A DNA stretch of 64,000 nucleotides from Acidobacteriota bacterium (GCA_031361295.1 JANMCN010000036.1:3716-67715), one strand, 5' to 3'. Shown: positions 530 to 45,620, counted from the first letter of the stretch. Numbers and translations are program-made. Notes: a model not told the origin generated them from the letters alone.

Positions 530-1975
530 CTACCTGCGGGCGCTGCGCGTGGCCGCGACCTGGTCGGCCGTGAGCTTCGTGATCTTGAGGCCGCCGGACT
601 CAATGTCGAGCGCGTATGGGTTCGGTTCGTGCCCGGAACCGCGCATCTTGATGACGCGTATCCGCCGATCGAGGCTGAAGCCGCCGATCGAATAGTCCAT
701 CGTGACGATCGCGTCGGCGATGGTCGAGAGGTAAGGGGCGCTGTGCTCGGTCACCTCGGACGTGCCGACGGTCTGGGTGATGAGCGCGCTTCGCCCGTGT
801 TCGCGAAGGATCGACGCCACGCCAATCATGAACTGCCGGAATCCTTTCTCGGACGACGCATGCTCGATGGAGGAGATGCTGTCGATGATCACGAGCGACG
901 GCTTCAGTTCCTCGAGCCCCAGCCGCAGATCGACGAGCAGGTCCTCGAGACTCGTGGCCTCGGGATAGCGACAGATCATTGTCAGGTGGCCGCTCTCGAT
1001 CGACGGCTCCATCCCCATCCCGATCGCGCGGTAATTCCGCAGCAGGATCCCGCGTGTCTCTTCGAACCCGTAATAGACGACGCGTTCACCGCGCATGGCG
1101 CCGGCCCTCGCGTAGATGCCGGCGAGCAGTGTCTTGCCGCTGCCGGTCGGACCGCGCACGATGACGATGGAGTTGCGGAGCCAGCCGCCGTGGGTCATCT
1201 CGTCCAGGCCCGCCACTCCGCTCGGATAACGCTCGACGTCCTGCCCGCTGTCGTGCGGCTCCTGCGCGTCGAGCGGGAACACGGCGAGGCCGCGGGTCGT
1301 GATGGCGCACGGGTATTCCCCTTTGTAGTGCGCGCTGCGGCGGTATTTGTTGACCTCGATCGAGCGCCGGCGGCGGCCGCCGTCCACGATGTTCCGCAGG
1401 ATGATCGTCAGGTCGCAGACGTAATCCTCGACCCCCATGGTCGTGAGCTGTCCGTAATCGCTCGGCGCTTCCGCCAGGATGACCGAGGTGACGCCGATCT
1501 TGCGCAACGCGTAAACGAGCTGGAAAAAGTGGCTCCGTAGCGCGTCGGCCGGAGGCCGCGGGCTGAAGAGCGCGGTCGCCGAGTCGATGACGCACGCGCG
1601 CGCGCCGGTCCGGCTCACCAGCGCCTCGAGGCGGTGCGTCAGGCCGGACAGGTCGTATTCGCCCGACACGAGCGTCGGCCCGTCCATCGGCCGCGTGATG
1701 TCGGCAAAGTGCAGCGTGCCCTGCCGAACCGACCGCGAGGTGGCGAGGCCGAGTGAATCACCGCTGTCCTGGAGGTCGCTCGGAGACTCTTCGACGGCCA
1801 CGATGATGGTCGGAACGCCGTCCCGGGCAAGGTTGGACGCGATTTGCAGCCCGACGACGGTCTTGCCGGTTCCGCTCTTCCCCGCAATCAGCGTCGAACG
1901 GCCCTCCGGGATGCCGCCGTGGGTCAGGACGTCCAGCCCGGGGACTCCGGTTTGCAGTTTCTTCAGTGCGCTCAT
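530..1975 (-). CDS. kaiC: KaiC-family double RecA-like ATPase/autokinase
   Basis: 481-aa ORF with two RecA-like halves. Each half has a Walker A box (GKSGTGKT; GPTGSGKT) and a Glu pair (VAVEES; YGFEET). It also carries a YLSTIADAIV Ser-Thr pair like cyanobacterial KaiC S431/T432 and an IKMRGSGH motif. Its start overlaps the upstream stop (ATGA at 1972-1975). Confidence 0.9.
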   Translation of the reverse strand: MSALKKLQTGVPGLDVLTHGGIPEGRSTLIAGKSGTGKTVVGLQIASNLARDGVPTIIVAVEESPSDLQDSGDSLGLATSRSVRQGTLHFADITRPMDGPTLVSGEYDLSGLTHRLEALVSRTGARACVIDSATALFSPRPPADALRSHFFQLVYALRKIGVTSVILAEAPSDYGQLTTMGVEDYVCDLTIILRNIVDGGRRRRSIEVNKYRRSAHYKGEYPCAITTRGLAVFPLDAQEPHDSGQDVERYPSGVAGLDEMTHGGWLRNSIVIVRGPTGSGKTLLAGIYARAGAMRGERVVYYGFEETRGILLRNYRAIGMGMEPSIESGHLTMICRYPEATSLEDLLVDLRLGLEELKPSLVIIDSISSIEHASSEKGFRQFMIGVASILREHGRSALITQTVGTSEVTEHSAPYLSTIADAIVTMDYSIGGFSLDRRIRVIKMRGSGHEPNPYALDIESGGLKITKLTADQVAATRSARR

Positions 1976-2679
1976 GCCTTCGCGTCAACTCCACAGACCC
2001 GCAGCAGGTCCGACAGCACGTCCGTCTCGCGCAGGTTGCCGAGCACCCACATCCGCGGCGCCGGGAACCGCTTCACCAGCGTCGGCGTGAACGCGATGCG
2101 ATCTTCGTCGCCCGCAAACGGTTCGCGCACGAGATCGCGGATCGAGCACTTCACCTGCGTGGCCTCGAACTGGGCGAGCAGCCGTTCGAGGTTCCGGCGC
2201 GCCTGGATCGAGGCCGGCGATGCCGAGCTGATATAGAGCACCAGTTCGACGCGGTAACCTGCGGTGTCCGACTCGATGGTGCTGTCGTGTCCGCTTCGGT
2301 CGCCTGCGGCGACCAGCAGGATACTCCTGACCTGCTCGAGGAACTGATCGAGATCGAGCGGCTTGCCGATGACGGGGATGTCCTCCACGTCGCGCACGTG
2401 CGGATGCGCCGTGACGATGACCGCTGCCGTATGGGCGAGCAGACCGAGGCGGCCCGCCTCCTGCAGCATCCATGCACCCGTGCCGCCGGGCATCGCATAG
2501 TCGCTGAGTACGAGGTTATAACGTGCCTCCTTCAGCCGTTTCAACCCCTCGTGCGCGTTTGCGGCCTCGTCGACGCGGTGACCCTCGAGCTCGAGGGCCA
2601 GCGTGAGCATCTGCCGGAGATCTTCCTGGTCATCGACCACCAGGATGCGTGCCGGGGCGGGCGCCCTCGTCGCCGTCAT
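1972..2679 (-). CDS. receiver (REC) domain - KaiB domain fusion protein
   Basis: Start re-assigned to the ATG at 2679 (MTATRAPAPARILVVDDQEDL). The Arg-rich upstream extension of track ORF 1972..3009 looks non-coding. The N-terminal half is a REC domain (LVLSDYAMPG, VIGKPLD). The C-terminal half is KaiB-like (VELVLYISSASPASIQARRNLERLL...IAFTPTLVKRFPAPRMWVLGNL). Confidence 0.85.
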   Translation of the reverse strand: MTATRAPAPARILVVDDQEDLRQMLTLALELEGHRVDEAANAHEGLKRLKEARYNLVLSDYAMPGGTGAWMLQEAGRLGLLAHTAAVIVTAHPHVRDVEDIPVIGKPLDLDQFLEQVRSILLVAAGDRSGHDSTIESDTAGYRVELVLYISSASPASIQARRNLERLLAQFEATQVKCSIRDLVREPFAGDEDRIAFTPTLVKRFPAPRMWVLGNLRETDVLSDLLRVCGVDAKA

Positions 2680-2877
2680 GCGACCATCCCCCCGATGTCG
2701 CCCTGACGATGGCTGACACCCGGACAGCCGGCCCCAAATGCACCCGCGCCGGCAAGGGGGCGACCGTCCATCATGCAGTGCGGCCCGCACACGCCAGCGG
2801 CGTCGGCGCCCAGTGCGCACCATTGCACGTCGTCGCGCGTCCGCGCCCGGGTCAGACACGTCACCGACGTCCGAAAA

Positions 2878-2893
2878 AGCAAATTTGTTGCCG
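2878..2893 (-). promoter_or_regulatory. candidate sigma-54 (-24/-12) promoter upstream of the REC-KaiB/kaiC operon
   Basis: The minus strand reads CGGCAAcaaatTTGCT versus consensus TGGCAC-N5-TTGCW, with GG and GC at the correct spacing and 2 mismatches. It lies in a short AT-rich patch about 200 nt upstream of the ATG. Alternatively it is a weak hairpin plus T5 terminator for the SDR gene. Confidence 0.3.
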
Positions 2894-2908
2894 GACGGGG
2901 CCGTTGAC

Positions 2909-3649
2909 TCAGCGAACGTGGCGTCCGCCGTCCACCCGCAGGGTTTCGCCGGTGACGAAGTCGGACTGGATGAGGAACGCAACGGCTTTGACGACCTCCT
3001 CCGCGCCACCCCATCGGCCGAGGGGGGTGGACTGCTCGACGGCGGCCTGCTCCTCCGCCGACGTGCCCGGCGGTGGGAGGATGGGGCCCGGCGCGACGGT
3101 ATTCACGAGGATCTGGTCGGCCGCAAGCTCGAGCGCGAGCGCCTCGCTCAGCCCGACGACCGCATGCTTCGCGACGTAGTACGGCAGGTAGCCCTTGTAG
3201 CGCGGCCGGCCGCTCACGGCGACCCAGTCCGAGAAGTTGACGATCCGTCCTCCGCCGGCCGCACGAAGGTGCGGGACGGCCGCATGCGCGCACAGGAAGG
3301 CGGCCTTCAGATCGACATCGATCACCCTGTCCCACGCATCCTCGTCGGTCGCATCGAACGGCACTTCCGCATAAACCGACGCCATGTTGATCAGCACGTC
3401 GAGTCGGCCAAGCGCCGCGGCGGCTGCGTCCACCAGCCTCGCGCACGCGGGACCGTCCGACAGATCGGCGCGAAACAGGAACGCACGGCGCCCGGCCGCG
3501 CGCACCGCGTCGGCGGCGTCCTCGGCCTCGCGGCTCGATCGGTTGTAGGAAAGTGCCACGTCGACGCCGCGCCGGGCCAGATCGAGGGCAATCGCTGCGC
3601 CGATGCGCCTGCCGCCCGTGATCAGCGCGGCGCGGTTGTGAAAATCCAT
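2909..3649 (-). CDS. SDR-family oxidoreductase
   Basis: Start re-assigned to MDFHNRAALITGGRRIGAAIA (Rossmann TGxxxxG). Also has the YxxxK motif (YYVAKHAV) and a C-terminal FVTGETLRVDGG. Confidence 0.85.
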   Translation of the reverse strand: MDFHNRAALITGGRRIGAAIALDLARRGVDVALSYNRSSREAEDAADAVRAAGRRAFLFRADLSDGPACARLVDAAAAALGRLDVLINMASVYAEVPFDATDEDAWDRVIDVDLKAAFLCAHAAVPHLRAAGGGRIVNFSDWVAVSGRPRYKGYLPYYVAKHAVVGLSEALALELAADQILVNTVAPGPILPPPGTSAEEQAAVEQSTPLGRWGGAEEVVKAVAFLIQSDFVTGETLRVDGGRHVR

Positions 3650-10925: not shown

Positions 10926-12152
10926 GTGAAAGCGTCCCGATCGGATCGCGCGCGCGCGCTCTTCGACATCTACACGCGCGATCTGTCGCGGGAGGACCTG
11001 CAGCGCCTGTTCACGCACGACACGCTCGATGCGTATCGGTTCTTCGCGCGGGGCCTGGACGAGGAGCAGTTCGCGGCGCTTCCACCCTGGCAGCGCGTGC
11101 CGCACCGGATCCGGCAGATCTTCGTCGCCTTCACGCTGAAGCTGCCGCCGGCGCGGCGCGCCCTGTACGTGGTGGCACTCCTTGTCGCGCTGCTCGGGAT
11201 CATCCAGCTCTTCAGGGGATTCGCCGCAGTGGCGATTCCGCTCGGACTCCCGTTCATCCAGGTCGCCGTGCTGACGCCGGTCTGGGCCGACGGGACCTTC
11301 GCGCTGATCGTCAGCCTGTTCCTCGTCAACCTGCTCGTGCTCCTCGAAGTCGCCGACCGTCTCTCGCTCAAAGGCGAGCTGGAGGTTGCTCGCGAGATCC
11401 AGCTGGCCATGCTTCCGAGTGGAACATACCGGGCGGCGGACATCGAGATTTGCGGCGTGACACGCCCCGCGAACACCGTCGGGGGGGATTTCTACGACGT
11501 GCTGCCGCTTCGCGACGGGCGGGTGATCGTCACGCTCGGAGACGTGGCCGGCAAAGGCAGCCCGGCGGCGTTGCTGATGGCCCTGCTGCTCGCGGTGCTC
11601 CGGACGCTCGTGGACGAGGAGCTCGAGGCGTCCGCGCTCGCTGAACGCCTGAACGTGCAGATCTGCCGGCACAGCCCGTCGTCGCGTTTCATCACGCTGT
11701 TCTACGGTGTCTACGCGCCAGCCACGGGATCGCTCACATATGTCAACGCGGGACACATGCCGCCGCTCATTCGCCGGCAGGACGGCCGGTACGATCGCCT
11801 GGGCGGCACCGGTGTCGCACTCGGCATGTTCGACGGATCCGTCTTTGGCGCGGTCGAGACGACGATCGGGCCTGGAGAGGCGCTGGTGCTGTACAGCGAC
11901 GGGATTACCGAGGCGGAGAACCCGTCGGGGCACCCGTTCGAGGAGGCCGGGCTCGAAATGGTCGTCGAGCGCCACGCGACCGCGCCGCCAGCGGAAATCG
12001 GCACACGCGTCCTGGCGGCGGTCGCGGAGCACGCCCGGGACTCCCGCTTCACGGACGATCTCACGATTCTCGTCCTCAAGCGCGCGGACCCGTCCGCCGC
12101 GGTGTCTTCATCGGTTGCACCCGCACACCCGGACGTGACCGAATACCGCTAG
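10926..12152 (+). CDS. membrane-anchored PP2C/SpoIIE-family protein phosphatase
   Basis: N-terminal TM helices followed by a SpoIIE domain (GGDFYDV, GDVAGKG, LYSDGITEA, DDLTILV). Confidence 0.8.
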   Translation: MKASRSDRARALFDIYTRDLSREDLQRLFTHDTLDAYRFFARGLDEEQFAALPPWQRVPHRIRQIFVAFTLKLPPARRALYVVALLVALLGIIQLFRGFAAVAIPLGLPFIQVAVLTPVWADGTFALIVSLFLVNLLVLLEVADRLSLKGELEVAREIQLAMLPSGTYRAADIEICGVTRPANTVGGDFYDVLPLRDGRVIVTLGDVAGKGSPAALLMALLLAVLRTLVDEELEASALAERLNVQICRHSPSSRFITLFYGVYAPATGSLTYVNAGHMPPLIRRQDGRYDRLGGTGVALGMFDGSVFGAVETTIGPGEALVLYSDGITEAENPSGHPFEEAGLEMVVERHATAPPAEIGTRVLAAVAEHARDSRFTDDLTILVLKRADPSAAVSSSVAPAHPDVTEYR

Positions 12153-21459: not shown

Positions 21460-23262
21460 CTAGGTCGTGATGCGCACGGCCACCGCGGTCATGTCGTCGT
21501 TGGGTGGCGTCTCCCCCCGCCAGTCGTGCACGGCGGCGAAGATCCCCTCGACGATTCGTGCGGGCGGGAGATCGCGCAGCCTCCCCACGACCTCCAGGAG
21601 GCGCGCGGCGGTGAATTCCTGGCCGCTCTTGTTCATCGCTTCGTAAACGCCGTCGGTGCAAATCACGAAGAGGTCCCCCATGTGGAGGGGGAACGAGACC
21701 TCGTCGTACGTGGAGCCTTGGAACGAACCGAGCGGAACGCCGGGCAGCTCGATCTGCGAGCAGCTGTCGGCGGTACAGCGAATCGGGTACGGCAGGCCGG
21801 AGTTCGCCAGCGTCATGATGCGCCGTTTCAGGTCGAACACCGTGTAGCAGAGCGTGCAGTAATACTCCTCGAGCTGCCGCTGCTGCAGGATCGTGTTGAC
21901 TGACGACAACACGCCTGCGGGGCTCGACCGGTCGGGCAGATACCGCCGCCGGAACGTGCGGCCTCGAATCAGCTCGGCGGCGAACACGCTGTACAGCGCG
22001 GCCGGCACGCCCTTCCCGGACACGTCACCCACCGCGACGACCAGCGTGTGCGATTCCGGGGACAGATAGTCGTGGAAGTCGCCGCCTAGCTCAAGCGCCG
22101 GCGCGAAGGCCGCCGCGACGTCGATGCCCTTGAGCCGCTTCGGCGGCGCCGCGGGCAGCAGGGCCGTCTGCACGCGCTGCGCAAACCGAAGCTCCTTCTC
22201 GAGCCGGTCCTCGTTCGACCGGACCTCCTCGTACAGGCGCGCGTTCTCGATGGCCACGGCGGCCTGGCTGGCCAGCAGCGTGAGAATCTCGACGTCGCGT
22301 TTGCTGAACGCGTCGAGCTCCGGACTCTCGAGGTCGACGACGCCGATGCACCGGTCCTTCAGGAGCAGCGGGATCGCCAGCTCCGATCGGACGTCCGGCA
22401 CCAGCTTGATGTAGCGCGGATCCTGCGACACGTCGGCGACGAGGACCGCCTCGCGGTGCAGTGCCGCGTAGCCCACGAGCCCTTCGCCCAGGCGCAACGG
22501 GGGAACCTGCACCTTCTCGCCGTACTGCACCGCGAGCTTCATCTCGAGCTCGCCGCGCTCTTCGTTCAACAGCAGGATGCCGAACGTGCGGTACTCGATC
22601 AGCCGCTTCGTCGATTGCGCGATCCGTGCGAACAGCTCGTCGGGCGCGAGCACCGACGCGACTTCGCGGCCGATCTCCGCCAGGGTCTCGAACGCTTCGG
22701 CGTCGCTCCGGCTCCGCTCGAAGAGCCTCGCGTTGATGAGCGCGACGGCGACATGCGCCCCGAACTGCCTGACGATGTCGACGTCGCGCGGCGTGAACTG
22801 GTCACGGTTGCGACTGAGGATGTTGAGCGCCCCGATGGGCCGCGACTTGTGCAGCAGCGGCACGACGATTTCCGAGTTCATGCCCGGCACGAACTCGATG
22901 TAGCGGGAGTCGGCGAGCAGGTCGTTGACGAGGAGCGGCTGCTCGCTCGCGACCGCGGCGCCGACGAGTCCCGCACCGAGCTTGAGCCGCAGCGGCTTGC
23001 CGGACTCGGGATACCCCACCGAGTACGCCGACCGAAGCTCGCCGCGCCGTTCGTCGAGGAGGTACACCGCGAAAGCTTCGAACGAAATCAGCCGCCCGAT
23101 CAGCCGCGGAATCTGGTGGAGCAGCTCATCGAGGTCCAGGACACTCGTCACCTGGCGCCCGAGGTCGAACAATGTCGTCAGGAGCTCGTGCTCGGCGTAG
23201 CCCGCCTGGGTGCCCGGCGCCGGTTCGGCGGGTGCCCTGTCCGATGGAATGCCTTGGCTCAC
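21460..23262 (-). CDS. GAF-GAF-PP2C (SpoIIE-type) phosphatase
   Basis: 600 aa with two GAF-like halves. C-terminal GGDFHDY, GDVSGKG, ICTDGVYEA and DDMTAVAV motifs. Confidence 0.85.
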   Translation of the reverse strand: MSQGIPSDRAPAEPAPGTQAGYAEHELLTTLFDLGRQVTSVLDLDELLHQIPRLIGRLISFEAFAVYLLDERRGELRSAYSVGYPESGKPLRLKLGAGLVGAAVASEQPLLVNDLLADSRYIEFVPGMNSEIVVPLLHKSRPIGALNILSRNRDQFTPRDVDIVRQFGAHVAVALINARLFERSRSDAEAFETLAEIGREVASVLAPDELFARIAQSTKRLIEYRTFGILLLNEERGELEMKLAVQYGEKVQVPPLRLGEGLVGYAALHREAVLVADVSQDPRYIKLVPDVRSELAIPLLLKDRCIGVVDLESPELDAFSKRDVEILTLLASQAAVAIENARLYEEVRSNEDRLEKELRFAQRVQTALLPAAPPKRLKGIDVAAAFAPALELGGDFHDYLSPESHTLVVAVGDVSGKGVPAALYSVFAAELIRGRTFRRRYLPDRSSPAGVLSSVNTILQQRQLEEYYCTLCYTVFDLKRRIMTLANSGLPYPIRCTADSCSQIELPGVPLGSFQGSTYDEVSFPLHMGDLFVICTDGVYEAMNKSGQEFTAARLLEVVGRLRDLPPARIVEGIFAAVHDWRGETPPNDDMTAVAVRITT

Positions 23263-23846: not shown

Positions 23847-24595
23847 CGCACCACCATCACGACCAGTCCGATCTTGACCGCGCGCGACGCCCACGATGCG
23901 CCCCTGGCGCTTGGGTGGTAATACCGCCAGGCATCCAGGAACGCCGGGGCGAGCAGCAGCGCGCCGATGACACGTTCGTCCACGCGCGCGGCCGTCGCCA
24001 TGCCGCGCGTGTCGCGCTCGGCGGGGCCCGTTTTCGCGAACGCGGCGCCTGCGTACGCGACGGATGCCAGAACGTTGAACGCAAAAACACCCTTGGCGAG
24101 CGGGGCCCGTTCGCGGCGCAGCTGTGGCCGACGATCGAGCAGCAGCTCGTTTTCCGCATGCTGAACCCAGAAGCCGGCCGACGAGATCGTGAACTCCTGT
24201 CTGGGTGGGAGCCCGTTCCGATGGGTAATCGCGAAGAAGGGCACGCCGTGGAAGTCCACCTTCCGAAGTCCCGGTTTTTCACCGAACGCGACATCGGCGA
24301 TCACATGGCCGATTTCGTGGGTGGCCAGGCCTGTGGCGCCCCCAGCCAGAAAAGATGCAATCCGCTTCCCTGTCGAGTCATCCTGCGGCGGCGGTCTCTG
24401 CGGCACCGACTGAGCCGAGACCCGGCACGCCACCGCAAGTAGCACGAGACAGAGGAGTAAGGGCGGTGGGGGGGGCCGTTTCCGGCCCGCGCTCCGGGCG
24501 GCACAGTGGTTGCTCTGCTGTAAGTCCGTGACATAACACGCCGCCCGAGGGTCGGCGTCAAGGAGAAGGCACATGCTCGAAACGATTGCGATCAT
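23843..24595 (-). CDS. hypothetical secreted/membrane protein with HExxH motif (start uncertain)
   Basis: Signal-like RKRPPPPPLLLCLVLLAVACRVSAQS, then LATHEIGHVIADVAFG. No clean start codon precedes the signal. Candidates are ATG at 24595 or 24574, or GTG at 24445. Confidence 0.45.
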   Translation of the reverse strand: MIAIVSSMCLLLDADPRAACYVTDLQQSNHCAARSAGRKRPPPPPLLLCLVLLAVACRVSAQSVPQRPPPQDDSTGKRIASFLAGGATGLATHEIGHVIADVAFGEKPGLRKVDFHGVPFFAITHRNGLPPRQEFTISSAGFWVQHAENELLLDRRPQLRRERAPLAKGVFAFNVLASVAYAGAAFAKTGPAERDTRGMATAARVDERVIGALLLAPAFLDAWRYYHPSARGASWASRAVKIGLVVMVVR

Positions 24596-24719
24596 CCTTA
24601 TCGTTCTCTGGCTCCTCGGGATGGTCAGCGGCTACACACTCGGGAACTTCATCTACGTCCTGCTGGTCGTGGCGATCGTGCTGTTCCTCGTGCGGCTGAT
24701 CAGCGGACGCCGGGTTTAA
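24573..24719 (+). CDS. 48-aa two-TM membrane protein (lmo0937/DUF5670-like)
   Basis: Hand-found and below the track cutoff. Sequence MLETIAIILIVLWLLGMVSGYTLGNFIYVLLVVAIVLFLVRLISGRRV. An AAGGAGAAGG SD lies 3 nt upstream. Confidence 0.65.
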   Translation: MLETIAIILIVLWLLGMVSGYTLGNFIYVLLVVAIVLFLVRLISGRRV

Positions 24720-28678: not shown

Positions 28679-30223
28679 GTGCCGAACGGCCCTCGCACAC
28701 CCGCGGCTCCCCCGCCCGAAGCGTTCGCGCGGCTGTTCGAGTCGGTGCACGAAGGCGTCTACATCGGGACCCTGTCGACCGACGCGGCCCGGACCCTGTC
28801 GGCCAATCCGTATCTCAAGCTGATGTTCGGATACGCGGTGGAAACGGCGCAGGACGAAGTGCGGCCGTTCGAGGCCGACCGGTTCGTGGACCCGCAGGCC
28901 CGCGAGGCCTTCCTGGAACGCCTCGACCGGGACGGTGCGATCACCGATTATCTGCTGCGGCTTCGGCGCGCCGATCGATCCCCGATCTGGGTGGAAGTGA
29001 CGGCGCACGCGGAGACCGCCGGCGCCGCCGTGCGGATCGAGGCGCTCATGCGCGACGTCACCGAGCGGAAACGCCTGGAAGACCAGGCGCGGGACTTGTA
29101 CCACCAGCTGCTGCAGGCGGAGAAGCTCGCGGCGCTCGGCCAGACGATTTCCGGCGTTGCCCACGAATTGAACAACCCGCTCGCGACGATCCTCACGTGG
29201 GCCGAGCGGCTCGCGCAGCGATCAGTGGACGACCAGACCCGGCGCGGCCTCGAGACGATCCTGAGCGAGTCCGAGCGGGCGGCCAAGATCGTGCGCAACC
29301 TGCTCACGTTCGCGCGCAAGCGGCACACCACGCGCGCCATGGTCGATCTGAATCAGGTCGTCCGCGAAACCCTCGCCTTGCGGTCGTACGAGCAGCGCTT
29401 GAGCAACATCACGACGATCGAAGCGCTCGCGTCGGGCCTCCCGCAGGTCTTCTCCGATCCGCATCAGCTCCAGCAGGTGCTCCTCAACCTCGTCATCAAC
29501 GCCGAGCAGGCGATGATCAGCGCGAACGGACGCGGCACGCTGGTGCTCCGCTCCTGGCACGACGCCGACCGCGACGCCGTCATTCTCGAGGTGAGCGACG
29601 ACGGGCCGGGTGTTCCCGACGACGTCCAGCCGCGCATCTTCGATCCCTTCTTCACGACGAAGGACGTCGGCAAGGGGACGGGTCTCGGATTGACCGTCGC
29701 GTACGCGATTGTGCAGGAGCACGGGGGCCGCATCACGGTGAAGTCCGGCGCGGGCCGCGGGGCGTCCTTCCACGTCGAGCTTCCGGTAGGCGCCGGGCCG
29801 CTCAAGCCTGCGCTGCCGCGGCCTCCCGAGCTGCCGTCGTTGTCGGACGATGTGGGCGCCGGAGCGGCTGTGCTGGTCGTCGAGGATGAAGCGGCACTCG
29901 GCGCCGCGGTGGCGGAGGCCCTGGCGGATGCGGGCTTCGTGGTGGACCGGGCCGGCGACGGACTCGAAGCGCTCGAGCAACTCCGGGCCCGTGCCTACGA
30001 CCTGATCATCTGCGATCTGAAGATGCCCCGCCTCGACGGCACGTCCTTCCATCGCGAGCTCGAGAAGATCGATCCCGCGATGGCGCGCAAGGTGCTTTTC
30101 GTCACCGGCGACGTGGCGGGCACGGAAGCGGAGCGCTTCCTCGACGAGACCTCGTGCCGGTGGCTCGCAAAGCCGTTCCGGCTGAAGGACCTGCTCCGCG
30201 TCGCGCGGGAGATGCTCGTCTAG
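28679..30223 (+). CDS. hybrid sensor histidine kinase (PAS-HisKA-HATPase-REC)
   Basis: H-box ISGVAHELNNPLATIL. N/G boxes present (NLVINAEQAM, DDGPGV, GTGLGL). C-terminal receiver (VLVVEDE...LIICDLKMPRLDG...KPF). Confidence 0.9.
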   Translation: MPNGPRTPAAPPPEAFARLFESVHEGVYIGTLSTDAARTLSANPYLKLMFGYAVETAQDEVRPFEADRFVDPQAREAFLERLDRDGAITDYLLRLRRADRSPIWVEVTAHAETAGAAVRIEALMRDVTERKRLEDQARDLYHQLLQAEKLAALGQTISGVAHELNNPLATILTWAERLAQRSVDDQTRRGLETILSESERAAKIVRNLLTFARKRHTTRAMVDLNQVVRETLALRSYEQRLSNITTIEALASGLPQVFSDPHQLQQVLLNLVINAEQAMISANGRGTLVLRSWHDADRDAVILEVSDDGPGVPDDVQPRIFDPFFTTKDVGKGTGLGLTVAYAIVQEHGGRITVKSGAGRGASFHVELPVGAGPLKPALPRPPELPSLSDDVGAGAAVLVVEDEAALGAAVAEALADAGFVVDRAGDGLEALEQLRARAYDLIICDLKMPRLDGTSFHRELEKIDPAMARKVLFVTGDVAGTEAERFLDETSCRWLAKPFRLKDLLRVAREMLV

Positions 30224-30250: not shown

Positions 30251-31156
30251 TCAGCGCGCGGCGGCCACCGGCGCCTGCGACGAAGCGCCGGCGGTTCGGG
30301 TGTGACGCCGCGGCGCCGTCGCCACGGGGGCCCGGTATTGCAGCACGACACCGCGGCCTTCCGACAGGTCGGCCTTCGCCATCCGGCGCCGGCGGATCGT
30401 CTGCTGGAACGAGAGAATCGCGGGGCTCACCGTCTCGTCGGCAAAGCACTCTGCACCGAGGGCCTTCTTCAGCCGCGAGACCGCGCGCGCGTGCAGCTGC
30501 GAGACCCGCGACTCGTTCACCCCAATCTCCGCCCCTATCTGTTTCATGGTCGCTTCGGCGTAGTAGTACAGGCCGATCACCTTCCGCTCGCGCGGAGGAA
30601 GCGAGGCGATCGCCGCGCGGATGCGATCGCGCACTTCCTGCTGTTCATAGGCTTTGTCGGGGGCCATGGGCTCGGACGGAACGAGGGCTGCCGGCAGCGA
30701 GGCGTTGTCGACATGATCGCCGGACGAGAGCGGCGACGTGGATTCGATGGTGTTGATGCGGACGATCGTCCGCCCGAGCCGGGCTTCGTCGGATCCGACA
30801 CGCGCCGCGAGGTCCGCCAGCGACGGTTCCGCTCCCAGCTCCCGCCGCAGCTCTTCGCGCGCCGTCTCCAGTTCCCGCCGCTGCCGCCGGACGCCGCGCG
30901 GCCAGGCGTCGCGACGGAGCGCGTCGATCATGGCCCCCCGCACCCGCCGTTCTGCGAAGGTCTCGAACTTGATGCCCCGTCCCTCGTCGAATCGGCAGGC
31001 CGCGTCGATGAGGCCGATCATCCCGTCCTGCACCAGATCGCCGAGCTCGATGGAGTGGGGCATCGAGGCCGCCACGCGCCGCGCGAGCGACTCCACGAAG
31101 GGAAGTCCGGCGGCAATCCGATCCCGATTGTGAGCGGCGAGTGGCTGGCGCTGCAT
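30251..31156 (-). CDS. FliA/WhiG-type (group 3) RNA polymerase sigma factor with C-terminal extension
   Basis: Region 2 (DLVQDGMIGLIDAACRFD), region 4 (ATMKQIGAEIGVNESRVSQLHARAV) and about 65 extra C-terminal residues. Start set to the ATG at 31156, which has a GGAGGA SD 8 nt upstream. Confidence 0.85.
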   Translation of the reverse strand: MQRQPLAAHNRDRIAAGLPFVESLARRVAASMPHSIELGDLVQDGMIGLIDAACRFDEGRGIKFETFAERRVRGAMIDALRRDAWPRGVRRQRRELETAREELRRELGAEPSLADLAARVGSDEARLGRTIVRINTIESTSPLSSGDHVDNASLPAALVPSEPMAPDKAYEQQEVRDRIRAAIASLPPRERKVIGLYYYAEATMKQIGAEIGVNESRVSQLHARAVSRLKKALGAECFADETVSPAILSFQQTIRRRRMAKADLSEGRGVVLQYRAPVATAPRRHTRTAGASSQAPVAAAR

Positions 31157-31211
31157 GACTCGGTTCCTCCAGAGGATTGTGTCTGCCACAAACGGCAGAC
31201 CTTGCCCTAGC

Positions 31212-31226
31212 GCAACCGGGGTGCCA
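31212..31226 (-). promoter_or_regulatory. sigma-54 promoter (-24/-12) for the FliA-type sigma gene
   Basis: The minus strand reads TGGCACcccggTTGC, a match to TGGCAC-N5-TTGC. It lies about 45-55 nt upstream of the ATG at 31156. The predicted leader starts with the hairpin GTCTGCC-N6-GGCAGAC (31181..31200). Confidence 0.6.
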
Positions 31227-31363
31227 CGAGAACACGATCCAAAAGCGAAACCACGCGGAAATAGTCCGCTAGAACTAAGCAGCTGAAATGTAAGGGGTTA
31301 GCGTGTGAACAGGTGTGAAGGAGCGGGCAGATCCGAGCGGAAACGTTGAGCTATTGTGCCATT

Positions 31364-31407
31364 AAATTGACTGTCGTGGCTCGTTGTGTCAAATAAATGA
31401 CTGTCGT
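31364..31407. repeat. two direct repeats AAAT(T)GACTGTCGT spaced 30 bp; candidate enhancer (UAS) for the sigma-54 promoter
   Basis: TGACTGTCGT occurs at 31368..31377 and 31398..31407, 140-180 bp upstream of the -24 element, in a low-GC spacer. Confidence 0.35.
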
Positions 31408-31640
31408 CACGCCTTCGAACGAGTGCGGACTTCCCGTGCGGTCGCCATGGCATCGAGGACGCTCGCGACCACCTGGGAGGCGCGCGCGCGCGTCATCTCG
31501 TCGGCCGCCTTGGCCTCGAGCAATTCCGCGTTCGCCAGGATGATTCCCAGCTGGTTGTTCAACCGGTGAAAGAGCAGTCCGAGGTCGGGCGGTTCGGTCA
31601 CGGACGTCCTCCCGGTTCTGGGGTCGGCGGCCGGAGCCAT
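31407..31640 (-). CDS. orphan DHp-like (histidine-kinase H-box helical hairpin) 77-aa protein
   Basis: In-frame C-terminal part of track ORF 31407..32075. Sequence MAPAADPRTGRTSVTEPPDLGLLFHRLNNQLGIILANAELLEAKAADEMTRARASQVVASVLDAMATAREVRTRSKA. Its H-box resembles VAHELNNPLATIL of the neighbouring kinase. Its ATG overlaps the upstream stop (TGATG). Confidence 0.5.
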   Translation of the reverse strand: MAPAADPRTGRTSVTEPPDLGLLFHRLNNQLGIILANAELLEAKAADEMTRARASQVVASVLDAMATAREVRTRSKA

Positions 31641-31846
31641 CAAGCTTCTTTGCTCGTCAGTTCGCCCGCGCGCCCCGGCTCGCGCCAGAGCGTGTCGACG
31701 AAGATGCGCACCGATCCGCCGGCGGTACGGACGTACTCGACCTTGCCGCTGGCGATCCAGTTGTAAATCGTGCGGCGGCTGACGCCGACCAGCTCGCACG
31801 CCTTCATGATCGAAATCGTCTTGCGATCGGTGATCATCTCTCTCAT
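31640..31846 (-). CDS. excisionase/MerR-superfamily small HTH DNA-binding protein
   Basis: 68 aa. Contains ISIMKACELVGVSRRTIYNWIASGKV. Confidence 0.75.
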   Translation of the reverse strand: MREMITDRKTISIMKACELVGVSRRTIYNWIASGKVEYVRTAGGSVRIFVDTLWREPGRAGELTSKEA

Positions 31847-32062
31847 CGCCAGGCCCGGTACCGACGGGCGTGAGTGGGTTGCCGCATTCGAGGTTCACAA
31901 GCGTTATCGGACGAGCGCGCACGCCGCTGTAGCCTCGAGCGATCGCGCCGACAGGCCATTCGGATCGTTTCAGGACTTCGTGGACACGCGCCGTCACCTG
32001 CTGACCAACGGGTCGGGCTCGGCACGATCGCAGGCGTGGAAAATCCCGTTTCGCGACGCGCA

Positions 32063-32091
32063 TTGACCGCTCCACCGGGGGGTGTCAAAAT
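32063..32091 (+). promoter_or_regulatory. candidate sigma-70-type promoter (TTGACC-N17-CAAAAT) for the bEBP gene
   Basis: Read directly. The -10 element ends 14 nt before the ATG at 32106 and there is no SD, so the leader is short or absent. Confidence 0.3.
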
Positions 32092-32105
32092 GCCGTCGCG
32101 CCTGA

Positions 32106-33506
32106 ATGTCTGACGGCCAGAAGCATCTCCTGATTGTCGACGACGAAAACGCGCTGCGCGAGGCCATCGCGGAGCGCCTCGGGGATCATGGCTTCGTCGT
32201 CGAGCAGGCCGACAGCGGCGAGGCCGCGCTCCAGCGCCTCGCGGAATTCGCCTTCGACATCCTCATCACGGATCTGCGTCTTCCCGGAATCGACGGCCGG
32301 AAGGTCCTGGATGCCGCGCTCGAGCGGTACCCCGAGATCATCGCCATCGTCATCACCGGCTACGGCACGGTGAAGGACGCCGTCGAGGCGATCAAGCAGG
32401 GGGCCGCGGATTTCATCACCAAGCCGTTCCAGTTCGACGCGCTTCTCCACGTGCTGCGATCGGCGCTCGAGCAGCGCCGGCTGAAATCGGAGAATGCCTA
32501 TCTCCGATCGCAGCTCGAAGAGCGATACCGCATTGACGGTCTGGTCGGCCAGAGCCGCATCATGCGCGATCTGTTTCACCTCCTCGAGACCGTCGCGACC
32601 ACGTCGAGCACGGTGCTGATCACCGGGGAGACCGGCACGGGCAAGGAGCTCGCCGCGCGCGCCATCCATCACGCGAGCCCGCGGCGCGCGAACCGGTTCG
32701 TCGCCATCAACTGCAGCGCCATCCCGGAGACGCTGCTCGAAGCGGAGCTCTTCGGACACGTCCGCGGCGCGTTCACGGGCGCGGTCGCGACTCGCCAGGG
32801 GCGGCTCGAACAGGCCCACAAGGGCACGCTGTTCCTCGACGAAGTGGGCACGATGAGCCCGGCGCTGCAGGCAAAGCTGCTGCGCGTGCTGCAGGAGCGC
32901 GAGTTCGAGCGGGTCGGAGACTCGCACACCGTCAAGATCGACGTGCGGGTGATCGCGGCGACGCACTCCGACCTCGCGCGCATGGTGTCGGAGGGGACGT
33001 TCCGCGAAGACCTGTTCTACCGGCTGAACGTCATCCCGGTGCAGTTGCCCTCGCTGCGCGAACGCCGCGACGACGTGCCGCTGCTCGTGCAGCACTTCCT
33101 GCAGAAGCTTGCAACGGAGGCCGGTCGCGGCCATGTCACGGTGTCGCAGGACGCGCTGCGCCGCCTGATGGCCTATCAGTGGCCCGGCAACGTGCGGCAG
33201 CTCGAAAACATCGTCGAGCGCGCCCTCGCATTCAATCACGGACGCGCGCAGCTGGACGTCCAGGACCTTCCGGCGGAAATCCAGAACGGCCCATCGCCCG
33301 TCGATTCGTCGGAGGTCTGGTTTCCCGACGATGGTCTCGACTTCGAGCGGTACATCGAAGGGGTGGAGCTGTCGCTGATCCGGCGATCGCTCGAACGGAC
33401 GCAGGGCAACAAACGCCAGGCGGCCAAGCTGCTGAACCTGAAGCGCACCACGCTCATCGAGAAGCTCAAACGGCTTGAAGCCCCGGCCGCCGCAAAGCTG
33501 CCATAA
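32106..33506 (+). CDS. NtrC-type sigma-54-dependent response regulator (REC-AAA+-Fis HTH)
   Basis: Receiver domain (LLIVDDE, ILITDLRLPG), Walker A GETGTGKE, GAFTGA loop and C-terminal QAAKLLNLKRTTL. Confidence 0.92.
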   Translation: MSDGQKHLLIVDDENALREAIAERLGDHGFVVEQADSGEAALQRLAEFAFDILITDLRLPGIDGRKVLDAALERYPEIIAIVITGYGTVKDAVEAIKQGAADFITKPFQFDALLHVLRSALEQRRLKSENAYLRSQLEERYRIDGLVGQSRIMRDLFHLLETVATTSSTVLITGETGTGKELAARAIHHASPRRANRFVAINCSAIPETLLEAELFGHVRGAFTGAVATRQGRLEQAHKGTLFLDEVGTMSPALQAKLLRVLQEREFERVGDSHTVKIDVRVIAATHSDLARMVSEGTFREDLFYRLNVIPVQLPSLRERRDDVPLLVQHFLQKLATEAGRGHVTVSQDALRRLMAYQWPGNVRQLENIVERALAFNHGRAQLDVQDLPAEIQNGPSPVDSSEVWFPDDGLDFERYIEGVELSLIRRSLERTQGNKRQAAKLLNLKRTTLIEKLKRLEAPAAAKLP

Positions 33507-33514
33507 TCGACCAT

Positions 33515-34678
33515 ATGCCTCCCCGGCACCACTACTGGACGATCATCGTCGACGACAAGCCAACGGCTTTCCGCGCGGCGGAGCAGGAAGAGTTGATGCC
33601 GACGCTGCGTCAACTGCAGGCGCGCCACCCTGATGCGGTCATGAAGTGGTTCGCGCGCGGGCGGCTGTGGGAGTCCCAGGACATCGAACGCGCGGACGCG
33701 GCAGCCCGCCGCCGCCCGCCCGCAGGGGATCGTCGTCCGCCCGCAGGCGATAGACGCGGCCGTGAATGGCGGCCCGGGGGGGAGCACAAGGATCCGCGCG
33801 ACCGCTTCAAAATCCCGCGGGATGAAAAGCGACGGCGCTTCGCCGAGAATCTTTTTCGCGACCGTTCCGAGCCACCGCCACAGACCGCCGAGAAGCGGGG
33901 CGACGACGTTCCGCCGCCGCGAACGTCAATCGATGGGACTCCCCGGGACAATCGCGGCGCAACGCGGCCGTGGAGCCCCGCGGGCGCTCGCGGAGGAAAG
34001 CCCGCCTGGAACCGGGACGGCGCACGGGGAACGAAGCCTGGAAACCGCGAGGGCGACCACGGTGGCAAGCCGCCGTGGAAGCGTGACGGTCGTCCCGCGG
34101 CTCCGGCTTCGAGCCGCGGAGGAGACCGTGGCGCGAAGCCCGCCTGGCCGCGCGGCGAGGCGCGCGGGGACCGCGATCAACAGCGCGGTGGGAGGCCGGA
34201 CTGGAAGCCGGCGCCGTCGACCGACCGGCCCGGCGGCGACCGCAAGCCGTGGGGACGTCCCCCGGGCGCCCCGACGGGACGACCGCCGTGGTCGAAAGAT
34301 CGACCCGCGGGTCGCGACGGCACCTCCGGCAGCCGCCCGCCCGCGGGCGGATGGAAACGGGACAGGCCTGCCGGTGGAGGCTGGAAGAAGGATCGGCCCG
34401 CGCCTGGTGGCTCGTTTCCCAGGGATCGGCCGGATGGAAGTCGAGGCGGCCGGCCACCAGGCCCGCCGCGGCCACGAGACGATGAGCGGGGCGGGAGTGG
34501 ACCTGCCGGTCGGCCGGGCGGCTCAGGCCGGACCGGCGGCGCCGGGCGCCCGGGTGGAATCGGACGTCCGGGAGGGTCCGGCCGTCCCCCGGGCGGGGCG
34601 AATCGATTCGGGCCGCGCCCGCCACGGGGCGGGGGCAAACCGGGCGGCAGCGGCGGCGGTGGAGGCCGCAGCCGGTGA
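33515..34678 (+). CDS. protein with ~60-aa globular N-domain and ~320-aa Arg/Gly/Pro/Trp-repeat disordered tail
   Basis: Starts 8 nt after the bEBP stop. High GC3 in this frame. Repeats of G(K/R)P.W(K/N)RD type. Its stop overlaps the next start (GTGA). Other frames are also open, so the frame choice rests on context. Confidence 0.6.
   Translation: MPPRHHYWTIIVDDKPTAFRAAEQEELMPTLRQLQARHPDAVMKWFARGRLWESQDIERADAAARRRPPAGDRRPPAGDRRGREWRPGGEHKDPRDRFKIPRDEKRRRFAENLFRDRSEPPPQTAEKRGDDVPPPRTSIDGTPRDNRGATRPWSPAGARGGKPAWNRDGARGTKPGNREGDHGGKPPWKRDGRPAAPASSRGGDRGAKPAWPRGEARGDRDQQRGGRPDWKPAPSTDRPGGDRKPWGRPPGAPTGRPPWSKDRPAGRDGTSGSRPPAGGWKRDRPAGGGWKKDRPAPGGSFPRDRPDGSRGGRPPGPPRPRDDERGGSGPAGRPGGSGRTGGAGRPGGIGRPGGSGRPPGGANRFGPRPPRGGGKPGGSGGGGGRSR
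33716..33757 (+). repeat. 2 x 21-bp in-frame tandem duplication (PPAGDRR x2)
   Basis: ccgcccgcaggggatcgtcgt / ccgcccgcaggcgatagacgc, 17 of 21 identical. Confidence 0.7.
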
Positions 34679-36128: not shown

Positions 36129-36632
36129 TTACTGCGGCCTGACGTCCGCCGCGTCCACCTCGACGCTGACCGCCTGCCCGATCAGGTCCACGGCCAGCAC
36201 GAGCCGCGCGTGTGCGCCCTTGCGAACCAGCCGGCCGACGACGCCCTTGAGCGGACCGTGCACGACCTCCACCATCGTCCCTTCGCGGATCAGCGGACAG
36301 GGATCGAACTGGAGATCGCTTTCGACAATGCGGCGGATGCCGTCGATCTCGAAATCGGGAATCGGCGCGATTTCGCCGTCGAACGCCACGATGCTGACGA
36401 CCCCGGTGCACTTGAGAATGGGGAGACGTTCGCGCCCGTCGAACCGCGCGAAGCAGTACCCCGGGAACAGCGGCCAGTCGACCTTCTTCTTCCGATCCTT
36501 CCAGCGGCTCCACCGCGGGATCGTCGGCAGAAACGCCTCGTACCCCTTCTGCACCAGCTGTTCCCGCACGACCTGCTCGTGCCGCGAACGCGTCCAGATG
36601 GCGTACCAAGGCTCCTTTGAAAGCTGCGTCAT
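36129..36632 (-). CDS. NusG-paralog transcription antiterminator (RfaH/UpxY-like)
   Basis: 167 aa. NGN domain (WYAIWTRSRHEQVVREQL...LFPGYCFARF) plus KOW (GTMVEVVHGPLKGVVGRL). Confidence 0.8.
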   Translation of the reverse strand: MTQLSKEPWYAIWTRSRHEQVVREQLVQKGYEAFLPTIPRWSRWKDRKKKVDWPLFPGYCFARFDGRERLPILKCTGVVSIVAFDGEIAPIPDFEIDGIRRIVESDLQFDPCPLIREGTMVEVVHGPLKGVVGRLVRKGAHARLVLAVDLIGQAVSVEVDAADVRPQ

Positions 36633-44059: not shown

Positions 44060-44848
44060 TCACACTTCCTCCGCGAACGTGTCCCGTAACCGATCGAAGA
44101 TGAAATATCCGAACAGAAAGAATGCGATTGAGATGGCGCCGAGGACGAGGAGCCATCTGAGATGGCCGAAGTCTCCACGAAAGAACAGGATCTCCTGGTA
44201 CGACACCGCCAGGTGCGTGAACGGATTCAGGTTCAGGAACCGCTTGGCGACGGGCGGCGCCTGGAACCACGGGTAGATGATCGGCGTCGCGAAGAACCAG
44301 AACGTCAGGAGGTTCGCCAGGATGTCGCGGATGTCGCGGAAATGCACCGTCAGCGCCGAGAGGATCAAAGCAAAGGATATCGTGAGCACGAGCTGCACGA
44401 ACACGACCATCGGCAGCCAGAGCAGCGTCAGGTGCGGCGGGAGCCGGTAGTACGCCAGGAACGCCGCCAGGATCCCCAGTCCCAGGAAGAAGTGGACCAT
44501 GTTCGCGAGCACGGTCACGATCGGCAGGATTTCCGCCGGGAAGAGCACCTTCTTGATCAGGTTGCCGCCGGAGATGAGGATGTTCGACGACTCCGCGAGC
44601 GACGACGAGAACCATGTCCAGGGCAGGATGCCGCAGAACATGAAGACGACGTACGGCTCGAGTCCGATGTGGGTGCCCGGCATCACGTATTTGAAGACGA
44701 GCGTGTAGACCGTGAGCAGCAGGAGCGGGTTGATGAAGGACCAGAAGAAGCCGAGCACCGAGCCGCGATACCGCGCCTTCAGCTCGCGCGCGACGAGGCT
44801 CTGGATGAGACCGCGGTAGCGAAAGAGTCTCGCGAGGTTATGGAACAT
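44060..44848 (-). CDS. ABC-2 type polysaccharide exporter permease (Wzm-like)
   Basis: 262 aa, predicted 6 TM. N-terminal ELKARYRGSVLGFFWSFINPLL. Confidence 0.85.
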   Translation of the reverse strand: MFHNLARLFRYRGLIQSLVARELKARYRGSVLGFFWSFINPLLLLTVYTLVFKYVMPGTHIGLEPYVVFMFCGILPWTWFSSSLAESSNILISGGNLIKKVLFPAEILPIVTVLANMVHFFLGLGILAAFLAYYRLPPHLTLLWLPMVVFVQLVLTISFALILSALTVHFRDIRDILANLLTFWFFATPIIYPWFQAPPVAKRFLNLNPFTHLAVSYQEILFFRGDFGHLRWLLVLGAISIAFFLFGYFIFDRLRDTFAEEV

Positions 44849-45620
44849 CGATTTCGAGGATCAGCGCCGTGATGTTGTCGGGGCCTCCCGCCTGGTTGGC
44901 CGCATCGACGAGCGCGCGCGAGATGCCGTCGAGCGTCATGCCGGCCTGTCCAAGAATCTCCGCGATGCGGTCGTCCGCGACGACGCCGAACAGGCCGTCC
45001 GAACAGAGAAGGTAGCGCTCGCCGGGGGCGGGGGTCACCTCCGTCACGTCGACCTCGGGATCCTCGCCGCCCGCGAGCGCACGCGTGACGACGTTGCGCC
45101 AGGGATGCTGGCGCGCGGCGCTCGGGGTCAGCGTGCCGGCACGGACCTGCTCTTCCACCCAGGAATGATCGTGGGTAATCTGCGCGAGCGTGCCGTGGCG
45201 CAGGACGTAGACCCGGCTGTCGCCGACGTGACCGACGCTCGCCGAGGTGCGTCCCACGAGCACGGCCGAGGCCGTGGTCGCCATCCCGCGCAGATCGTGC
45301 GAATCGGCAATTGCCGAGGCGATGCGGCGGTTCGCCAGGCGGAATGCCGCTTTGAGGCGATTGGCCTCGAGGCTGAGGGCCGGATCGAATGGGAAGGGCC
45401 ACGTGCGGTTCTTGTCGGCCCCGGCTGTCTCCTCGATGAACGCCTCGATGGCTTCGACGGCCACGCGCGAGGCGACCTCACCGGCGACGTGGCCGCCCAT
45501 CCCGTCGGCGACGACGAACAGGCCGACGTCCGCCCGGGTCGAGTAGCTGTCCTCGTTGCTCGTTCGCCGGAGGCCGGGATCCGTGCTGACCGCCCACGAG
45601 ACCGAATGCGCCGGGGTCAT
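44838..45620 (-). CDS. PP2C-family Ser/Thr phosphatase (Stp-like)
   Basis: TDPGLRRTSNEDS, VADGMGGH and LLCSDGL motifs. It starts 9 nt after the atpC stop. Confidence 0.85.
   Translation of the reverse strand: MTPAHSVSWAVSTDPGLRRTSNEDSYSTRADVGLFVVADGMGGHVAGEVASRVAVEAIEAFIEETAGADKNRTWPFPFDPALSLEANRLKAAFRLANRRIASAIADSHDLRGMATTASAVLVGRTSASVGHVGDSRVYVLRHGTLAQITHDHSWVEEQVRAGTLTPSAARQHPWRNVVTRALAGGEDPEVDVTEVTPAPGERYLLCSDGLFGVVADDRIAEILGQAGMTLDGISRALVDAANQAGGPDNITALILEIDVP

Follow-up and report, generated by a model that had tools for sequence, protein, structure and literature searches.

A conserved five-gene cassette in Vicinamibacterales that carries a sigma-54-type promoter and paired palindromes upstream of a FliA/WhiG-family sigma factor gene

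We analyzed a 64-kb stretch of DNA (64,000 nucleotides; hereafter the window) from an Acidobacteriota bacterium (GCA_031361295.1, JANMCN010000036.1:3716-67715), and within it a locus in which the gene for a sigma factor of the FliA/WhiG (sigma-28) family lies close to that of an NtrC-type activator, i.e., a bacterial enhancer-binding protein (bEBP) of sigma-54-dependent transcription. An original prediction, made from this sequence alone, had proposed that a sigma-54 promoter with upstream repeats drives the sigma gene as part of a sigma cascade outside any flagellar context. The window has a G+C content of 67%, and its approximately 50 genes, as scanned with Pfam, represent origin-proximal housekeeping content (e.g., ATP synthase, parAB, gidA, mfd, and surA). 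Orthologous loci for comparison were the best 80 of 510 relatives of the sigma protein among GTDB species genomes, with one locus per species. Nearly all of them are labelled as Vicinamibacterales or Acidobacteriota metagenome-assembled genomes, with sigma factors 65-92% identical to that of the window; the 3/80 loci with other taxon labels we take to be products of mis-binning.

When the window proteins were searched against the 80 loci by tblastn, a five-gene order was found to be common to all loci with enough flanking sequence. The activator gene is divergent; a helix-turn-helix (HTH) gene is followed by the gene of a 77-amino-acid (aa) protein, an intergenic region, and the sigma gene; and a hybrid histidine kinase gene is convergent. 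The HTH protein is mostly 80-99% identical to that of the window. The cassette thus appears to be a self-contained regulatory unit conserved across the order Vicinamibacterales (Acidobacteriota subdivision 6), in which the hybrid kinase is a candidate sensor. Out-group sigma genes from other lineages (46-57% identity) have neither the cassette nor the sigma-54 element described below, and they help to date the cassette but give no clue to its function. The nearest of them outside the clade with the cassette (loci L203, L205, L208, and L210) lie on low-GC contigs with housekeeping neighbours (aspartyl-tRNA synthetase, RNase H-like, and ribosomal proteins) and with no flagellar genes nearby, and locus L205 contains three consecutive sigma genes.

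Facing the sigma gene, 55 nt upstream of its ATG, is a sigma-54 -24/-12 element with GG and GC doublets 10 nt apart. Its core at 31226..31212 on the minus strand reads TGGCACcccggTTGC (i.e., TGGCACCCCGGTTGC), exactly as had been claimed, and is the sole exact match to TGGCAC-N5-TTGC in the window, where chance alone would give approximately 0.15 exact matches and 15% of shuffles yield at least one. The degenerate form NGG[CT]A[CTG]-N5-[TC]TGC (GG-N10-GC) was found upstream of the sigma gene in 80 of 81 regions (the 80 loci plus the window), that is, in all those with usable upstream sequence, and the core is conserved in 80/80 related species. With the exception of one region, each intergenic region contains exactly one such element, against an expectation from base composition, by our own estimate, of approximately 0.02 per region. 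Positions left free in the search pattern are conserved as well, including the first T (77/80), the G before TTGC (73/80), and a T three bases after it (64/80), giving a family consensus of TGGTAYC-N3-GTTGCG-N-T; most relatives have TGGTAC or TGGTAT, as opposed to the canonical TGGCAC of the window. The spacing between the element and the ATG is variable (12-178 nt), which is what one expects of a promoter and not of a translational signal; that between the element and the enhancer is fixed. The ATG at 31156 is preceded by the predicted GGAGGA Shine-Dalgarno sequence with an 8-nt spacer, and T-enriched alignment columns are located at -24 to -6 relative to the TGG.

The predicted leader begins with the perfect 7-bp hairpin that had been described; however, its conservation as a structure is weakly supported, as the mean z-score over 67 leaders is only -0.7, RNAalifold yielded no consensus from 26 leaders, and there was no Rfam match. 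Relatives mostly show some GC-rich hairpin in the leader, and in 11 of them the leader is too short for it. The hairpin was therefore rejected as a conserved RNA.

A second sigma-54-type promoter, CGGCACAGTGGTTGCT, is located at 24499..24514 (+) in the window, 58 nt upstream of a gene (24573..24713, +) encoding a 46-aa hydrophobic/membrane protein (MLETIAIILIVLWLLG...). The window has the form CGGCAC..TTGCT, and the canonical TGGCAC-N5-TTGCT precedes the gene for this membrane protein in at least 30 related loci, indicating that sigma-54 promoters are a feature of these genomes. No GTCAA-N4-TTGAC sequence was found upstream of this second promoter, and the palindromes described next are thus specific to the promoter of the sigma gene. 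A different conserved block, ..GCGCAACC..CACAGCAGTAAG.., is present upstream of the second promoter.

Further upstream of the sigma gene, the original prediction had identified two direct copies of AAAT(T)GACTGTCGT, and both are present, 30 bp apart, as AAATTGACTGTCGT (31364..31377) and AAATGACTGTCGT (31394..31406). The conserved signal, however, is a pair of 14-bp inverted repeats, GTCAA-N4-TTGAC; the direct repeat comprises one half-site of each palindrome plus a CTGTCGT flank that is absent from most relatives. Allowing up to two mismatches and reckoning centres with the GG at -24, we found two such sites in 54 of the 80 loci, one in 21, and three in 3, compared with 0.09 in shuffled regions. 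The spacing between sites is 29-33 bp in 54/57 loci with at least two sites, and the distance from the proximal site to the TGG is mostly 144-150 nt (~147 nt), with a subclade at 134-137 nt (~136 nt), a difference of about one helical turn. Paired dyad sites of this kind are the standard enhancer layout of the NtrC class, which is the role that the sequence pattern suggests for them here. In the stretch from the putative enhancer to the promoter, conservation is highest in a TAA...N18...TTA block, which loosely resembles WATCAANNNNTTR and may be an IHF-type bending site. Between this A/T block and the enhancer, at 31303..31322 (-), TTCACAC-N3-TTCACAC forms a direct repeat with a period of 10 bp; related loci often show TTCAC...(T/G)CAC at the equivalent position, and it may serve a further regulator.

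The regulator most likely to act at these sites is the NtrC-type activator, which is, as had been predicted, the only bEBP in the window and divergently encoded; its gene lies on the far side of the HTH operon from the sigma gene. Its domains were identified by Pfam (Response_reg, 5.8e-27; Sigma54_activat, 9.7e-73; HTH_8, 2.4e-9), the GAFTGA motif was confirmed, and the gene is syntenic wherever the upstream flank suffices. The receiver domain retains the acceptor Asp, and the recognition helix of the HTH is near-invariant among relatives. The protein falls below the NCBIfam equivalog cut-offs for NtrC, AtoC, and ZraR, and is thus none of these proper. A sigma-70-type promoter ends 14 nt before its ATG, and by a strict pattern it is kept in 51/76 loci. 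We considered autoregulation through the TTGAC/GTCAA sequences within this promoter and rejected it, as these sequences are accounted for by a -35 hexamer and an extended -10 element of the sigma-70 type and have no palindromic partner half-sites. The gene of a 387-aa protein (33515..34678, +) starts 9 nt past the activator stop codon, is found at the same position in most related loci, and probably shares a transcript with the activator gene; the protein consists of a conserved N-terminal region of ~110 aa that matches no Pfam family, followed by a long Arg/Gly/Pro-rich low-complexity tail.

A second conserved promoter motif faces the HTH operon. All 76 loci that include the divergent region between the activator and HTH genes contain CTA[C/T/A]A[G]-N15-[T]CCGATA[A/C]; each has a single copy, no further copy occurs in the window or in approximately 1 Mb of related loci, and shuffles gave 0 matches. 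The sigma-28 consensus is TAAAGTTT-n11-GCCGATAA (PMC2859248), and the window promoter shares with it 7/8 bases in the -10 part and, in the -35 part, TA-A. The E. coli-type FliA promoter TAAA-N14-16-NCCGATA has no match in the window, and the other matches to CCGATA[AT] in the window are all inside genes. A scan of metagenome contigs with CTACAG-N16-TCCGATAA was discarded, since its 120 matches were mostly low-GC chance occurrences, none of them orthologous, and the conserved spacer is N15; the sole high-GC match, before a PilZ-like open reading frame in L133, was likewise disregarded as a regulon lead because of its wrong spacing. No terminator-like site was found between the sigma-28-type promoter and the sigma gene, and read-through into the latter is thus possible. 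Read most simply, this arrangement has the sigma factor activating the genes beside its own from this promoter, which would close a feedback loop whose sign depends on what the 77-aa protein does.

Of the two proteins encoded by the operon, the HTH protein is of the excisionase type (HTH_17, 36.3 against a cut-off of 27; excise, 41.3 against 28.8; PDB 4j2n, Xis, E = 7e-4) and fails the BldC subfamily model (23.5 bits versus 77). The stop codon of its gene overlaps the start of the next one (TGATG), suggesting translational coupling. The 77-aa protein has no Pfam or NCBIfam match even at E = 10 and no PDB relative by sequence or profile search, and homologue searches returned only close hypothetical proteins of 77-78 aa. 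Its invariant motif FHRLNNQLGIILANAELLE, which reads FHRLNNQL, can be aligned with the H-box of the adjacent kinase (around His162) at a pairwise E of 3e-5 over 27 residues only, and a single-sequence AlphaFold model consists of one long helix, not a hairpin. A place in a phosphorelay would be attractive, since signal transfer from a hybrid kinase to a second receiver requires an intermediary that contains a His. A role as a FlgM-like anti-sigma factor is equally possible.

The sigma factor matches TIGR02479 (FliA_WhiG) with 194.9 bits against a cut-off of 189.6 and does not reach the NCBIfam equivalog models of either FliA or WhiG. Among solved structures, it is closest to WhiG (6pfv) and E. 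coli FliA (6pmi), with both alignments covering residues 18-234, and its homologues carry the JGI label of flagellar operon sigma factor. The C-terminal tail of ~65 aa beyond the FliA/WhiG core, which had been noted for the window protein, turned out to be present in all 81 proteins (80 loci plus the window). In AlphaFold predictions with 32 sequences, the predicted local distance difference test score (pLDDT) of residues 237-301 is <50 apart from a predicted helix at 243-262; residues 235-301 are thus predicted to be disordered, and no docking can be inferred from such scores. Within the otherwise variable tail there are conserved islands, namely PAILxFQQ, MAK, GVVLxY, and a C-terminal AAAR. 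This pattern resembles short linear motifs in a disordered regulatory tail, and could represent a partner-binding site or a degron.

Neither flagellar nor chemotaxis genes were identified among the approximately 50 window genes scanned with Pfam, nor within 6 kb on either side of the sigma gene in the 80 related loci. The Pfam scan of the window also agrees with the earlier statement that sporulation genes are absent from the 64 kb, since the three SpoIIE/PP2C-family phosphatase domains encoded there are those of general signalling phosphatases. The literature on flagella in Vicinamibacterales yielded nothing decisive; the cultured type strains of Vicinamibacter silvestris and Luteitalea pratensis have reportedly been described as non-motile.

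Table 1. Features of the cassette in the window (positions counted from its first nucleotide).
Feature	Position	Strand	Basis and remarks
Hybrid histidine kinase (PAS-HisKA-HATPase-REC)	28679..30223	+	Pfam domains; present in all loci whose downstream flank extends that far
FliA/WhiG-family (sigma-28) sigma factor, 301 aa	30251..31156	-	NCBIfam TIGR02479; core residues 1-234, tail 235-301
Shine-Dalgarno GGAGGA	31165..31170	-	Sequence; relatives keep GGAGG or GGAGA
7-bp perfect hairpin GTCTGCC-N6-GGCAGAC, start of predicted leader	31181..31200	-	Sequence; minimum free energy -15.8 kcal/mol
Sigma-54 -24/-12 element TGGCACCCCGGTTGCG	31211..31226	-	Predicted transcription start near 31201
T-rich block TTTCGCTTTTGGATCG directly upstream of -24 element	31235..31250	-	Recurs as TTCGCTTTTTGATCG in many relatives
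TAA...N18...TTA block between enhancer and promoter, about -100 to -78	31272..31302	-	Best conserved columns there
Proximal enhancer palindrome (minus strand GTCAATTTAATGGC), centre near -166	31358..31371	.	Alignment of upstream regions
Distal enhancer palindrome GTCAAATAAATGAC, 30 bp upstream of proximal, centre near -197	31388..31401	.	Alignment of upstream regions
77-aa helical protein, FHRLNNQLGIILANAELLE motif invariant	31407..31640	-	Present in 77/80 loci
Xis/BldC-like (excisionase-type) HTH protein, 68 aa	31640..31846	-	Pfam HTH_17, NCBIfam excise; nearly invariant across the order
Sigma-28-type promoter CTACAG-N15-TCCGATAA facing HTH and 77-aa operon	31904..31932	-	Reads CTACAGCGGCGTGCGCGCTCGTCCGATAA; fixed spacing in relatives
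Sigma-70-type promoter TTGACC-17-(TG)tCAAAAT for activator gene	32063..32091	+	Consensus scan; ends 14 nt before ATG
NtrC-type sigma-54 activator (REC, AAA+ with GAFTGA, Fis-type HTH)	32106..33506	+	Pfam, NCBIfam; divergent from HTH operon

Sequence elements, their geometry, their conservation, and the family assignments of the proteins are direct observations, and together they suggest the following circuit. The activator would be made from its sigma-70-type promoter and would be phosphorylated, likely by the convergent hybrid histidine kinase and perhaps with a relay through the 77-aa H-box-like protein. Dimers of the phosphorylated activator would then bind the two GTCAA-N4-TTGAC palindromes near -166 and -197, oligomerise, and, by means of a DNA loop over the conserved A/T-containing block, open the sigma-54 promoter at 31226..31211, from which the sigma-28-family sigma factor would be transcribed. 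The sigma factor, in turn, would recognise CTAcAG-N15-TCCGATAA, 750 bp upstream of its own gene, and direct transcription of the HTH and 77-aa protein genes; no terminator having been detected, it may also transcribe itself. The outcome would be a self-reinforcing switch that is triggered by sigma-54 and whose wider regulon is not evidently flagellar. We consider it probable that the cascade is wired in this manner, from the activator and sigma-54 to the sigma-28-family factor and on to the neighbouring operon, whatever its output may be. The element in 80/80 species, the phased paired sites, and the synteny support the central proposal of the original prediction, in which a FliA/WhiG-type sigma gene is placed, in a non-flagellar setting, under an enhancer-bearing sigma-54 promoter beside its likely activator.

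A more specific version can be put forward as a tentative possibility, in which the cassette would govern a lifestyle or developmental change independently of flagella, as a switch found solely in Vicinamibacterales and amounting to a WhiG/BldC-like circuit of independent origin. In this version, the kinase would signal by phosphorelay through a new type of free-standing helical H-box protein to the activator, which would act at the sigma-54 promoter of a tailed, self-locking sigma factor, and the latter would deploy a BldC-like protein.

Several points weigh against the proposed wiring. We infer every functional step from comparative sequence, including which protein binds which site, where transcription starts, which way phosphate flows, and whether the feedback is positive or negative. 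The housekeeping neighbours (Dus, SurA, and SDR) share the synteny of the region, and gene order alone is therefore weak evidence for functional linkage. The sigma factor clears the FliA_WhiG cut-off by only 5 bits. In the sigma-28-type promoter, the -35 part (CTAcAG) has one mismatch to TAAA, and the spacer exceeds that of E. coli by one base. For the 77-aa protein, a part in the phosphorelay is suggested by the 27-residue pairwise match and is backed neither by Pfam nor by the PDB profile search, and the structure model shows one long helix. In addition, rpoN was not found in the 64-kb window, and the HTH protein or another factor could be what binds the palindromes.

The most serious competing explanation is that the cassette is the regulatory tier of an ordinary flagellar hierarchy, as with FlrA/FlrC and FliA, with the structural genes elsewhere in the genome and the 77-aa protein acting as a FlgM-like anti-sigma factor. 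The membership of the sigma factor in the FliA/WhiG family and the name given to its homologues by JGI are consistent with this explanation, as is the situation in Vibrio, which has a sigma-54-dependent fliA and a sigma-28-dependent flgM (PMC6504787); a small protein gene that has a sigma-28-type promoter and lies beside the sigma gene is the FlgM pattern. Nevertheless, we think an ordinary hierarchy unlikely. The window and the 6-kb flanks in 80 loci are free of flagellar and chemotaxis genes, the cassette is embedded in housekeeping synteny, and its proteins are unusually conserved (HTH protein mostly 80-99%, sigma factor 65-92%). Moreover, the 77-aa protein does not match any FlgM model, the two cultured type strains named above are reportedly non-motile, and sigma-28 clades that are not flagellar are known (PMC12871210).

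Other explanations accept less of the wiring. The sigma-54 promoter might be real but unconnected with the activator next to it, which would then serve another promoter, and the HTH protein or some other regulator might use the palindromes as operators. The HTH protein is conserved as strongly as the palindromes, and the window contains two sigma-54-type promoters and one activator, so that the two are not always adjacent in this genome. We regard this arrangement as improbable, however, given that two phased dyad sites ~3 helical turns apart and >100 bp upstream of a -24/-12 element are the standard bEBP layout, that synteny of the activator holds wherever the flank suffices and its recognition helix is near-invariant, and that the second sigma-54 promoter has no palindromes. 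A further alternative is that TGGCAC-N5-TTGC itself is a chance or non-promoter element and that transcripts from the sigma-28-type or sigma-70-type promoters farther upstream, extending into the sigma gene, are its sole source of expression. A single exact match in 64 kb is not rare, as the shuffles indicate, and nothing resembling a terminator separates the upstream operon from the sigma gene; yet chance hardly accounts for a GG-N10-GC element in 80/80 species with additional flanking bases kept and the enhancer distance fixed while the ATG distance varies from 12 to 178 nt, nor for its absence, together with that of the cassette, from the out-group sigma genes. We consider this last explanation very improbable indeed, and retain the activator-driven sigma-54 to sigma-28-family cascade as the preferred reading.

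Elsewhere in the window, other regulatory genes were observed. The three PP2C/SpoIIE-family phosphatases mentioned above are encoded at 10926..12152 (+), 21460..23262 (-), and 44838..45620 (-), one of them carrying two GAF domains; they suggest much partner-switching or Ser/Thr signalling, and no cognate anti-sigma or anti-anti-sigma genes were noticed in the 64 kb. A KaiC-like ATPase (530..1975) adjoins a receiver-KaiB fusion protein (1972..3009), both within 530..3009 on the minus strand, and may form a clock-like or stress-signalling pair in this acidobacterium. Between the SurA and Dus genes is the gene for a 167-aa NusG-domain paralogue (36129..36632, -), which keeps its position in many related loci and may be a specialised antiterminator.

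Few soil bacteria are as abundant and as poorly understood as the Vicinamibacterales, whose gene regulation is almost unstudied. The cassette supplies three conserved DNA motifs (the sigma-54 promoter, the enhancer, and the sigma-28-type promoter) and five conserved proteins, which together make up a testable circuit, and the sigma-28-type motif is directly usable for regulon prediction in complete genomes. If the regulon is not flagellar, the cassette would represent a further independent re-use of the flagellar sigma family, here under sigma-54 control.

Among known systems, the closest likeness is to the polar-flagellar hierarchy of Vibrio cholerae, in which fliA depends on FlrA and sigma-54 and both the anti-sigma gene flgM and the class IV genes depend on sigma-28 (PMC6504787). 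As in that hierarchy, a bEBP and a sigma-54 promoter would lead to a FliA-family sigma factor and from there, via a sigma-28 promoter, to a small regulatory gene (PMC6504787). Unlike in V. cholerae, the cassette is a compact five-gene unit with no flagellar or chemotaxis genes near any of the 81 loci, its activator carries a receiver domain, its sigma factor carries the ~65-aa tail that is predicted to be disordered, and the genes putatively under sigma-28 control encode an Xis/BldC-like HTH protein and the 77-aa protein, which has no relation to FlgM. The enhancer geometry is best compared with glnAp2 of E. coli, where two strong NtrC dyad sites 32 bp apart lie >100 bp upstream of the -24/-12 element and are bound by a regulator of the REC-AAA+-Fis HTH type. 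The cassette similarly has two dyad sites ~30 bp apart and >100 bp upstream of a -24/-12 promoter; by contrast, its half-sites are GTCAA/TTGAC versus TGCACC/GGTGCA, its site centres are at -166/-197 versus -108/-140, and its target is a sigma factor gene instead of nitrogen assimilation.

With regard to the sigma factor, WhiG and WhiG2 of the Actinomycetota are sigma-28-family factors with a non-flagellar developmental regulon (PMC12871210). A WhiG (6pfv) is also the best solved relative of the window sigma factor, and the HTH protein of the cassette, like BldC, is of the excisionase/MerR-like type. BldC is presumably of the same length as the 68-aa HTH protein, whose match to PDB 6ama, which we take to be BldC, is weak (E = 0.78). 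Unlike for Streptomyces WhiG, no RsiG-like anti-sigma factor was seen in the cassette, and the phylum differs; to our knowledge, WhiG is not sigma-54-dependent and Streptomyces has no sigma-54. In Chlamydia, sigma-28 (RpsD), which takes part in late-gene control, is likewise a sigma-28-family factor in a flagella-less organism whose genome also uses sigma-54 with an NtrC-type activator (bioRxiv 10.1101/322701). The chlamydial lineage is unrelated, however, and has no comparable cassette. No report of a sigma-54 promoter in front of the sigma-28 gene of Chlamydia is known to us.

Overall, the lack of a flagellar context for the originally predicted sigma cascade holds for the 64 kb of the window and for the 6-kb flanks in its relatives, but is less exceptional than the prediction implied, since sigma-28 relatives with non-flagellar regulons such as that of WhiG2 are documented and the departure is thus one of degree (PMC12871210). 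The proposed wiring from a bEBP and sigma-54 to a FliA-family sigma factor is of a known kind, and what is new here is the conserved sigma-28-type promoter before the HTH operon.

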